From NCBI RefSeq assembly GCF_055900595.2, contig NZ_CM148325.1: DNA of 64,000 bases; one strand, 5' to 3'. The position numbers are program-made. Positions 38,005-41,000 of this stretch are shown piece after piece. Each line of letters opens with the position of its first letter. Positions within the stretch are counted from its first letter, which is position 1.

Positions 38005-41000
38005 TTAATTTGCATAGACCGTTTTCAGAGTAACCAGCGCATCGCTACGCCGCCAGCCAAAAACGCTGATAATTAGAAATTAATGATAAACAGGGAGGGA
38101 TATCAGTGAAAGGCATGAGTCGATGAATGACTGCATGCCGATAACATGTGACAGGTTACGACGCCAGAGCCAGCACCTCAGCCACCCACTGCTGGAAACC
38201 TTTCACATCCAGATCCAGCGCCACCTGCACGTTTGCAGGTTTACTCAGGCAACCATCAATATCAACAACCGTAGTACCTGAGGTAAATTCGCCCTGCGTT
38301 TCCACCGCCACAAAACACGGCTTGAGAGTAAACAATTCCGGGTGTACCAGCCAGGCGATAGCGCAAAGATCGTGCATACGCAGTCCACTTTGCATACTGC
38401 CGCTACGGTAGTGGCTAAACAGGGCGTGTAGCATTTTTCCGGTGCGATTCAACTCCGGCAAAGTAGCGAGATAGTCAGGGGTTAACATTGCCTGATTGGT
38501 GACATCCAGACCACACATGACGATTTCGATGCCGCTACGGAAGACACAGGCTGCCGCTTCTGGATCGGCAGCGATATTAAACTCGGCGTTTGGCGTACAG
38601 TTGCCGCGTCCGGCAGAACCGCCCATGATCACCAGACGGCGAATATGCGGTTTGCATTCCGGGCATTGTGAAAGTAACAGCGCAATATTGGTTAACGGGC
38701 CGATGGCTACCAGCGTAACAGGCTCAGGCGCACGCAGCAGGGCATCACGAATCGCCAGAAATGCGGGTTTGTCCAGTGGGCTTCTGTTGTGCTCGACAAA
38801 GTCGTAGCCAGCCATTCCCGATTCACCGTGTACAGATGCCGCATTACGCGGTGCGCGTACCAGCGGCACGGAGGCTCCCTGGGCAAGCGGAATCTCCGCA
38901 TTCCAGAAATGCAGCAGTTGCAGGGCGTTGCGGGTAGTTTTCTCTACCGAGACATTACCCGCGACGGTGGTCATCAGTTGCAGGTCAAGTTCCGGGGCAA
39001 AAATCGCGGCGGCAATGGCGACGGCATCGTCAATGCCTGGGTCAGTATCAAGGAAGATGGGTATAAGTTTTGTCATTACTGTCTCTCCTGGCTTGTTACT
39101 TGCTCATGGCTTTGAACTCATCGCGGCTGATACAGATATCCGAAATATCTTTATTCGTCACCAGACGCGGGCTAAGTTTATCGCCTTCAACAAACGGTAC
39201 TAGCGGGCAAAATTCCCCTGGAGACGCTTTATCTTCCTGCCACTGAATTTCAATGGATTCCGGCTTCATACCTGGTTTCTCTGACTGAATGACTGTGCGG
39301 ATATCCGTGGTTAACTGAAATGGCTCACACCCCTTCACATCAGTAAAAGTCGGCGTCAGATGACCATTCTTACGTTCCTGCAGATAAAAAATGCGGCCAT
39401 CGTGATAGGAAGGAATTACGTAGCAGGTATACATTTTACCTTTACTTAGCACGGGCTGAAGATAACTTGAACCTCTCTCGATCAATTCAACCTCTTTCCC
39501 CTTCCAGCGATAAACGTCAACCCCGTGACTACAGCAGCTTCCTCGCCAATGGCTGACGATCTGCTTATATTCTGCATCTGGCTCCGGCGAGGTGATTTCC
39601 TGATAAGACGCAGGCGCATCAACAAAACGTTGTGTTGAGGGATCGTAAAGCCAGGTTTGTTCGGGGATATTGGGTCCAGCGGGTAACTCTTGCGGAATGG
39701 AAAGATCCGGATAACCATCAAAATTAACATCCTTCCATTGAGGCGTAAAAATGCTACAAGTGCCGATAGAAGCAGTATATAAGGTCTGTATCGGTTTCCC
39801 ATCACGATATAATTTTATTGCTGAAATGACCGGAACATTATTACAGTCGATCGCTTTGGAAGGGTCGTAATCGTCATTCACTTCCGCCACCAGCACCAGA
39901 TCAATGCCCGGATCGTTTTTGGGTTTGTTATAGTGAAGCGCAATGGGGAAATGGTGTTTTTTATCGGCTGAAGTCCATACACCTTTTATCTCAATCGGTG
40001 AAACTTCAGCATCCCATTGACCAGAAAGTGTCTGTGTGCGCTCCTCAAGAAGCAACCGCTTAACCTGGAGAGATCCACGCAGAATTAATCGCATTTTTCT
40101 CTGATTGCAGGGTTCATAGCAATAGCTACCATGAAGGTCGTTGTTAATCCGCGTGATATCGACACTTACCTGCTTACCCGCAATCGTCCCGGAATAATTT
40201 CGATCCCAGAACGGAAATTCAAGCTGCGAAGCGCCATTGGCCGCTCCCAAACAAAATACAAAAGCCAAAAATCCCGCCAATCCATAAGCTATCTTGCTCA
40301 TCATCCTTGCCTCCGCAGAAGAGTACAGCTAAAAAAAACCAGCAACGAATGTGCTGGTTTTGAATGATTAATCTTTACTCGACTTCACGAATATCGACAC
40401 GCAGCTCTTTCGGCACTTCGAAAACAATGTTTTCTTCACGGCCTTCCAGCGGGATGGCTTCACCACCGCCCAGCTGCTGCAAACGTGCTACCACATTCTG
40501 CACCAGAATATCGGGAGCCGATGCGCCCGCAGTCACGCCGACGCAGTTCACGTCTTTTACCCACTCTTCCTGGATATCTTTCGCATCGTCAATCAAAAAC
40601 GCGCGTTTGCCCATACGCTGGGCCAGTTCCGCCAGACGGTTGGAGTTGGAAGAGTTTTTTGAACCAACCACCAGTACTACTTCCGCCTGTTCTGCCAGAG
40701 CGCGTACCGCTTCCTGACGGTTAGTGGTGGCGTAGCAAATGTCATCTTTGCGCGGCCCGACAATTTTCGGGAAGCGTTTACGCAACGCATCGATCACATC
40801 AGACGTGTCATCCACCGACAGCGTAGTTTGGGTCATAAAGGAGAGTTTCTCTTCGTTTTTAACCGTCAGTTTCCACACATCGTCCGGCGATTCGACCAGA
40901 TACATTCCCCCTTCCGGGTTGCTGTACTGACCCATCGTCCCTTCCACTTCCGGGTGACCGGCGTGACCGATAAGAATAGACTCTTCACCACGGCGGCTGG

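Follow-up and report, generated by a model that had tools for sequence, protein, structure and literature searches.

A DUF8339 (XAC2610-related) gene between ispH and rihC and its possible role as a periplasmic inhibitor

Between ispH and rihC, which in K-12-like genomes of Escherichia coli are separated by a 65-bp gap with no gene inside, a 64,000-nucleotide stretch of contig NZ_CM148325.1 (NCBI RefSeq assembly GCF_055900595.2; the whole stretch is hereafter called the window) carries on its minus strand an open reading frame (ORF) for a 402-aa protein with an export signal. A preliminary description, made from the sequence by itself, had read this gene as a strain-specific insertion that could be assigned to no family. 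The locus thus raises the question of where the gene came from and what its product might do. We find that the protein can be placed with confidence in the XAC2610-related / DUF8339 sequence-structure family, which is catalogued and experimentally uncharacterised, and that the apparent strain-specific novelty is most simply an ancestral gene lost from ~99.8% of sequenced E. coli and kept by Salmonella. For its function we favour, with a probability of roughly 0.5 and by analogy with XAC2610, a calcium-stabilised periplasmic protein that inhibits a peptidoglycan hydrolase and has been retained in the absence of a cognate toxin ('orphan immunity').

Family assignment and fold of the gene product

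The descriptive claims made for the gene were borne out on the minus strand: the 402-aa ORF, its GGAGG ribosome-binding site (RBS) and its signal peptide were all found as described, after a terminator-like hairpin downstream of ispH and separated from rihC by a 19-nt spacer, and the ispH–rihC interval is indeed short in K-12. That the ORF is a genuine coding gene rather than a chance reading frame follows from its ratio of nonsynonymous to synonymous divergence (dN/dS), which is 0.17–0.32 against four orthologues distant enough for it to be measured; the comparison with the almost identical EC42405 copy gives 0.83 at a dS of 0.004, a value that is uninformative. The corresponding ratios for the neighbours fkpB, ispH, rihC and dapB are 0.00–0.09, against which that of the gene is 3–10 times higher, and the gene is under purifying selection yet fast-evolving. 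A tandem ATG pair opens the ORF, the second ATG (40299-40301) giving 401 aa and being the RefSeq start on near-identical copies. The N-terminus is a typical Sec signal (MMSKIAYGLAGFLAFVFCLGAANGA/SQ). No lipobox motif ([LVI][ASTVI][GAS]C) was found in the window protein, and a lipobox-like string occurs in just 4 of 44 family members.

Membership in the family rests on several lines of evidence. NCBIfam model NF047539 ('XAC2610-related') matches residues 189-277 over model positions 2-89 of 89 with 89 bits (cutoff 35; E=2.2e-25). Pfam PF27031 (DUF8339) is precomputed on the representative of the 99%-identical cluster and on all full-length homologues, except one 236-aa match; a local Pfam-A scan of the protein gave no match, its library being older than PF27031. 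A single-sequence search of the PDB returned just chance AAA ATPase matches (E ~1). The AlphaFold model is confident (pLDDT 91), its top Foldseek match in the PDB is XAC2610 (PDB 4QTQ), and its core fold matches the XAC2610 crystal structure. The earlier statement that the protein fits no family is thereby overturned, and RefSeq itself uses the label 'XAC2610-related protein'; the match is to a family of which only the prototype, XAC2610, is characterised, and not the DUF8339 subfamily.

The family resemblance extends over the whole protein. Homologues cover 91-100% of the query in Salmonella, Pseudomonas, most Burkholderia and others, and ~70-88% in the most distant cases. The full-length architecture of ~400 aa, consisting of a signal, an N-terminal barrel, a core and a C-terminal region, is common to ~40 clusters at 50% identity, and the superfamily containing DUF8339 comprises 2,382 representatives. 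The predicted calcium-binding loop follows the pattern DxNxDGxxD, with no variation at D192, F195, D196, G197 or D200 and with N194 shared by 43 of 44 sequences. His260, Arg254 and Cys257-Cys258 are likewise invariant in the family, and every family-invariant residue is retained in the window protein.

Proposed function and its closest alternatives

X-Tfi(XAC2610), a lipoprotein of the periplasm, acts as an inhibitor of the GH19 lysozyme-like domain in X-Tfe(XAC2609), an effector of a type IV secretion system (T4SS) (PMC10933484). Residues 151-159 of XAC2610 (DINGDGHED) make up a loop that binds calcium and gives the protein stability, and its loop 165-173 is predicted to enter the effector active site, the substitution Y170A compromising inhibition (PMC10933484). 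By analogy, we hypothesize that the window protein, Sec-exported, soluble and disulfide-rich, would fold in the periplasm with its disulfides, of which five are predicted, and calcium and would bind there a peptidoglycan hydrolase that comes in or leaks, such as a lysozyme-like effector from a rival's T4SS or type VI secretion system (T6SS). The block would be stoichiometric, with the face that bears the calcium loop and the LPAGPN loop occupying or covering the enzyme active site. As no toxin is adjacent in enterobacteria, the gene would confer immunity of an 'orphan' or innate kind; for S. Typhi, an orphan immunity gene resembling XAC2610 has been proposed (PMC7400221).

Loci in other genera bear on this proposal. 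The homologue lies within a T6SS cluster in B. ubonensis and Burkholderia sp. F1, the Burkholderia order being VgrG, a protein of ~800 aa (here X), a protein of ~244 aa (here Y), DUF8339, PAAR, a 432-aa protein, TssM, TssF and TssJ. In four Massilia species DUF8339 (85-88% mutual identity) and VgrG (91-95%) flank cargo that is wholly different in each species, that of M. kyonggiensis being an X homologue with a coupled 222-aa gene. The gene recurs, then, at T6SS cargo sites in two genera, and such sites are the usual home of accumulated or orphan immunity genes.

Protein X contains two invariant motifs, H..H..D...HLHFE (M23-like) and E..E..GRG-LQLT..NY (GH19), and is probably a two-domain peptidoglycan hydrolase. 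Its predicted GH19 domain is firmly assigned, with profile matches to GH19 endolysins and chitinases in the PDB reaching E=1e-8 and Pfam GH19 in some members. The putative M23 domain is assigned more weakly, Pfam M23 being significant in one of 20 members and the remaining indications being the motif and the source names ('M23 family metallopeptidase', 'predicted chitinase'). GH19 is the enzyme family inhibited by XAC2610, which makes the co-location with X suggestive. We rejected DUF8339 as the cognate immunity protein of X, because X is always paired with Y, also where DUF8339 is missing, and because in Massilia the cargo changes while DUF8339 does not. Y falls outside the XAC2610 superfamily, and NCBIfam searches of the Burkholderia proteins X, Y and Z and of the Xanthomonas, Lysobacter and Lysobacteraceae neighbours gave no effector-type match, only MsrA, GGDEF and MFS.

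The VgrG-linked family of ~800-aa X proteins is large in its own right (880 matches, in Burkholderiaceae and Massilia), and most of its members have no Pfam annotation. Each member is followed by a translationally coupled gene of ~212-247 aa, which presumably encodes its immunity protein. Comamonas testosteroni SWCO2 carries a tandem DUF8339 pair (8493-9821 and 9761-11158 of its locus), the sole duplication among 41 species-level loci.

Several observations weigh against an orphan inhibitor. In Cupriavidus and B. ambifaria, X is accompanied only by its coupled Y and not by DUF8339, and in Massilia DUF8339 stays fixed while the cargo changes, with no co-variation. About 30 of the 41 species-level loci are standalone among housekeeping genes, with no T6SS gene within 10 kb. 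The residue equivalent to Y170 is Pro208, there is no lipobox, and the window holds no effector; the two extra domains have no assigned role. An arms race would explain the strict invariance of the loops across distant genera less well than a single conserved target or a function in catalysis or ligand binding. The X-T4SS of S. maltophilia kills S. Typhi (PMC6759196), so any protection conferred by the gene would be at best partial, S. enterica commonly being a carrier (carriage by that S. Typhi strain is assumed). Literature searches returned no paper on DUF8339 or on an activity of its proteins, in keeping with the preliminary view of a function without experimental description; those on STM0050, other Salmonella locus tags, STnc30, and X-Tfi with orphan immunity gave false matches or nothing.

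The closest competitor, to which we give a distinctly smaller share of belief, is a periplasmic inhibitor or binder with a housekeeping or host-directed role, controlling the cell's own hydrolases or protecting against host lysozyme in the manner of Ivy, MliC/PliC and PliI. The standalone, housekeeping setting of most loci and the vertical conservation beside ispH in Enterobacteriaceae suit such a role, and the functional loops, invariant across distant genera, suggest one conserved target. XAC2610 itself protects mainly against the endogenous enzyme (cis-intoxication) and has been likened to the lysozyme inhibitor PliI (PMC10933484); the N-terminal domain of the window protein, moreover, is an 8-stranded barrel. 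Against this stand the failure of the hidden Markov models (HMMs) of Ivy, MliC/PliC, PliG and PliI to give any Pfam or NCBIfam match at E<=1, the dispensability of the gene in 99.8% of complete E. coli genomes, and the combination of elevated dN/dS with T6SS-island neighbourhoods in two genera, which points to conflict.

We regard it as doubtful that the likeness to XAC2610 is one of fold only and that the protein is a calcium-binding, FG-GAP/VCBS-like periplasmic protein without inhibitory activity, acting in ligand or glycan binding, as a scaffold or as an unrecognised enzyme. Its neighbours in the AlphaFold database (AFDB) outside its own family are FG-GAP/VCBS repeat proteins, the key XAC2610 residue is not conserved, two domains are additional, and the invariant residues His260, Arg254 and Cys257-Cys258 might together make up a site. 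However, the sole characterised relative is an inhibitor, no HMM or fold match to a catalytic domain was found, and the T6SS neighbourhoods would be left unexplained.

The orphan inhibitor remains our preferred reading. A speculative and, as it stands, unlikely extension of it is that DUF8339 proteins form a separate 'innate immunity' branch of the XAC2610 superfamily, built of three domains and independent of any effector. They would be a chromosomally fixed periplasmic shield whose invariant Ca-loop/LPAGPN face neutralises a conserved class of injected peptidoglycan hydrolases (GH19-type or M23-type) from many attackers. If that were so, the deletion would be one reason why laboratory E. coli and most natural strains fall so readily to X-T4SS and some T6SS killers, and ecology would sustain the presence/absence polymorphism. 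In either form, an untested Pfam DUF gains a concrete and cheap hypothesis, that of a calcium-dependent periplasmic inhibitor of injected cell-wall hydrolases. Its confirmation would add non-cognate, vertically inherited immunity to what is known of interbacterial weapons; otherwise DUF8339 would be an ordinary accessory gene.

Distribution and history of the gene

Searches with megablast and blastn detected the gene in 9 of 5,426 complete E. coli genomes, in every case on the chromosome and between ispH and rihC; that it is rare and absent from K-12, as first supposed, therefore stands. The complete genomes hold two allele groups, with identities of 99.7% (three genomes) and 97.5-97.6% (six genomes), and 'XAC2610-related protein' is the annotation on most of the E. 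coli copies. The nine carriers all have an intact reading frame, as do the two divergent Escherichia-like alleles examined. Salmonella enterica has a homologue of 69% protein identity between ispH and rihC, and the corresponding 90%-identity cluster contains 4,762 member sequences. Homologues of 81% and 77% identity occupy the same slot on two contigs with the Escherichia order ileS-lspA-fkpB-ispH-DUF8339-rihC-dapB-carAB, one with flanks typical of E. coli and the other about as distant as Salmonella. The gene lies immediately after ispH in Citrobacter freundii and Enterobacter sp., and after ispH-rihC in Entomohabitans.

A scan of the minus strand for sigma-70-like promoters gave none in the ispH–ORF interval, inside the ORF or ahead of rihC, and so lends no support to the suggestion that the gene supplies or shares the rihC promoter. 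On the arrangement of the genes, read-through from the ispH operon with rihC co-transcribed appears likeliest, co-transcription being plausible because of the 19-nt spacing. In Salmonella, the 200-bp spacer between ispH and the gene contains the Rfam small RNA (sRNA) candidate STnc30, scored at 161 bits against a gathering threshold of 120. The conserved hairpin is the terminator of STnc30, which may act on the DUF8339 gene as its 5' leader or as an attenuator. The window keeps just the hairpin (24.5 bits, sub-threshold), the sole Rfam match across the gene region. The terminator scan placed it between the ispH stop (40375) and the RBS of the DUF8339 gene; its fold energy is unexceptional against shuffled sequences (z=-1.6), and its support comes from conservation with Salmonella and not from thermodynamics.

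It is improbable that the gene is a decaying remnant that no longer functions in E. coli. In favour of decay, hardly any E. coli still have it, no promoter is recognisable, the Salmonella STnc30 leader is missing, and some Salmonella records hold truncated copies. Decay is contradicted by the intact frame in 9 of 9 carriers and two divergent alleles, the dN/dS of 0.17–0.32, the retention of the invariant residues and the strong RBS. The truncated Salmonella family entries (several, of 127-331 aa) hint at pseudogenes or assembly breaks in some serovars.

The simplest history, as read from gene order and alignments, is that of a gene ancestral in Enterobacteriaceae, placed at the 3' end of the ileS-lspA-fkpB-ispH cluster, that was deleted from most E. 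coli. We prefer deletion to insertion because of the shared synteny, the hairpin upstream of the gene, which is homologous between the window and Salmonella by alignment, and a remodelled rihC start common to non-carriers: the RihC of carriers has 306 aa and is Salmonella-like, while the two non-carriers examined share a 304-aa form beginning MRLPIF. Judging from those two genomes, a single deletion of ~1.24 kb probably removed the gene from most E. coli.

A recent strain-specific foreign insertion between ispH and rihC, belonging to no family, which was the original interpretation, is largely refuted and scarcely credible. Its rarity among complete genomes would suit an insertion, as would the synonymous divergence among carriers, which is far lower in the gene (0.004-0.06) than in the flanking ispH and rihC (0.12-0.31), and the occurrence in one E. 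coli-like contig of an allele of 81% amino acid identity, which implies that alleles move by recombination. But the slot is occupied in Salmonella, Citrobacter, Enterobacter, Entomohabitans and the Escherichia-like contigs, the family assignment is confident, carriers have a rihC of Salmonella length, and the junctions of the gene show no repeats, insertion sequence (IS) elements or integrase genes. The gap in divergence would be explained if the flanks were overwritten by recombination from the gene-less majority, the gene itself being irreplaceable without its deletion. The recombination history of the contig with E. coli-like flanks and an allele just 81% identical is discordant.

The source of the window is a divergent, poorly sampled lineage and a mosaic of recombined segments, since over the surrounding 9.7 kb (35500-45200) no complete E. 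coli genome exceeds 98.2% identity; equally close relatives occur with and without the gene. The aligned part of the window (16331-64000) is 96.3% identical overall to a K-12-like chromosome, and rihC about 90–91.5%. Identity to that chromosome falls in two troughs, at 31500-32000 (88%) and 37000-37500 (91%).

The name 'nitrite reductase' in many UniProt and GenBank records has practically no chance of being right, as it is confined to the family's own records, looks like a propagated misannotation, and is refuted as far as sequence and fold tell by the lack of any cd1 haem or copper domain HMM match, of a CxxCH motif and of such a fold among the PDB matches listed.

Features of the window and comparison with known systems

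Table 1 Positions of the DUF8339 gene, its domains and signals, and of other features in the window and in retrieved loci
Feature	Position	Strand	Remarks and basis
DUF8339 / XAC2610-related gene	39096..40304	-	402 aa, first ATG; ORF list, NCBIfam match, dN/dS
Stop codon of the DUF8339 gene	39096-39098	-	
Ribosome-binding site GGAGG	40310..40314 (plus-strand cctcc)	-	5 nt before first ATG; sequence reading
Terminator-like hairpin (AAAACCAGCACAUUCGUUGCUGGUUUU + U-run) 3' of ispH	40335..40361	-	terminator scan, fold, Salmonella alignment, Rfam
Spacer, DUF8339 gene to rihC	39077..39095	-	19 nt; contains rihC RBS AGGAGAG
rihC, long, probably ancestral form	38156..39076	-	306 aa, MTKLIPIF...
ispH	40375..41325	-	upstream of DUF8339 ORF; final gene of ileS-lspA-fkpB-ispH cluster
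Sec (SPase I type) signal peptide, residues ~1-25	40230..40304	-	sequence and family N-termini; low pLDDT, helix 8-19 in model
N-terminal 8-stranded up-and-down beta-barrel, residues ~27-125	39930..40226	-	invariant GxYCYxPC motif
XAC2610-like core, residues ~135-300	39405..39902	-	NCBIfam match residues 189-277 (39474-39740)
Predicted Ca2+-binding loop D192-V-N-F-D-G-Y-P-D200	39705..39731	-	invariant columns, alignment to 4QTQ
Invariant loop L207-P-A-G-P-N212	39669..39686	-	aligned with XAC2610 inhibitory loop (residues 165-173)
C-terminal beta-rich region, residues 301-402	39099..39404	-	conserved Cys326, Cys366, Cys391; AF2 model
STnc30 (Salmonella locus)	4847-4978	+	
STnc30, window counterpart	40331-40441	-	
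X-family and coupled-gene segment, locus L008	6589-9791		retrieved locus
X-family and coupled-gene segment, locus L007	3898-7340		retrieved locus
X-family and coupled-gene segment, locus L031	11342-14273		retrieved locus
X-family and coupled-gene segment, locus L061	8001-11170		retrieved locus
X-family and coupled-gene segment, locus L062	8001-11023		retrieved locus
490-aa ORF without NCBIfam match	47257-48729		
YehD-like fimbrial subunit	48973-49506		
IS1 transposase fragment	49817-50320		
Chaperone-usher usher gene, split into two ORFs	51415-52574		
IS1-like zinc-finger fragment	56432-56980		
Arylsulfatase-like gene	57074-58567		
PRK11528-like gene	58588-59349		

Elsewhere in the window, segments 47036-49568 and 50343-53410 are absent from the K-12-like genome, and the genes of 47036-53410 resemble a fimbrial operon damaged by IS1, with just a stub of it left in K-12. 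The segment 55956-59731, with its IS1-like zinc-finger fragment and its arylsulfatase-like and PRK11528-like genes, is also absent from the K-12-like genome.

The closest known system is that of XAC2610 from Xanthomonas citri (4QTQ), which gives immunity to an effector of the bactericidal X-T4SS. The calcium-loop pattern of XAC2610 is kept exactly in the DUF8339 protein at a low pairwise identity of about 16-20%. The DUF8339 protein has 402 aa instead of 267 and adds the N-terminal 8-stranded barrel and the C-terminal beta region, of which XAC2610 appears to have no counterpart, judging from its 267-aa length and the core-only alignment. It carries a Sec signal in place of a lipoprotein signal, and in the profile alignment Tyr170 falls on Pro208 of its LPAGPN loop. 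A GH19/M23 effector-like ORF sought by HMM within the 64-kb window was not found, the neighbours being ispH and rihC; unlike X-Tfi loci, the gene has neither an adjacent effector nor a T4SS in the window. Structurally the protein belongs to the XAC2610 superfamily, yet it lacks three features by which X-Tfi proteins are defined (lipobox, Tyr170 and adjacent effector). That it is an X-Tfi does not stand; that it works like XAC2610 is what the analogy suggests.

With FG-GAP/VCBS repeat proteins it shares a DxNxDG calcium loop, here predicted, on a beta-blade-like fold, differing in that it forms a single incomplete blade set and not a repeat propeller, with no Pfam FG-GAP/VCBS match. PliI, PliC/MliC, Ivy and the T6SS immunity protein Tsi1 would share with it a proposed mode of action, in which a periplasmic beta-rich protein inserts a loop into the active site of a peptidoglycan hydrolase, and a comparison with such periplasmic inhibitors has been drawn for XAC2610 (PMC10933484). 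Lysozyme-inhibitor folds are not among the fold matches listed, and the general barrel topology of the N-terminal domain is uninformative, so that this analogy would be functional only.

The t0728-t0735 islet of S. Typhi, which includes the XAC2610-like t0732 (PMC7400221), provides the enterobacterial comparison. DUF8339 differs from it as a lone gene in a conserved housekeeping slot, vertically inherited and encoding a larger, multi-domain protein. The two loci, likened here by the description of t0732, are alike in carrying an XAC2610-superfamily gene on an enterobacterial chromosome without a cognate toxin.

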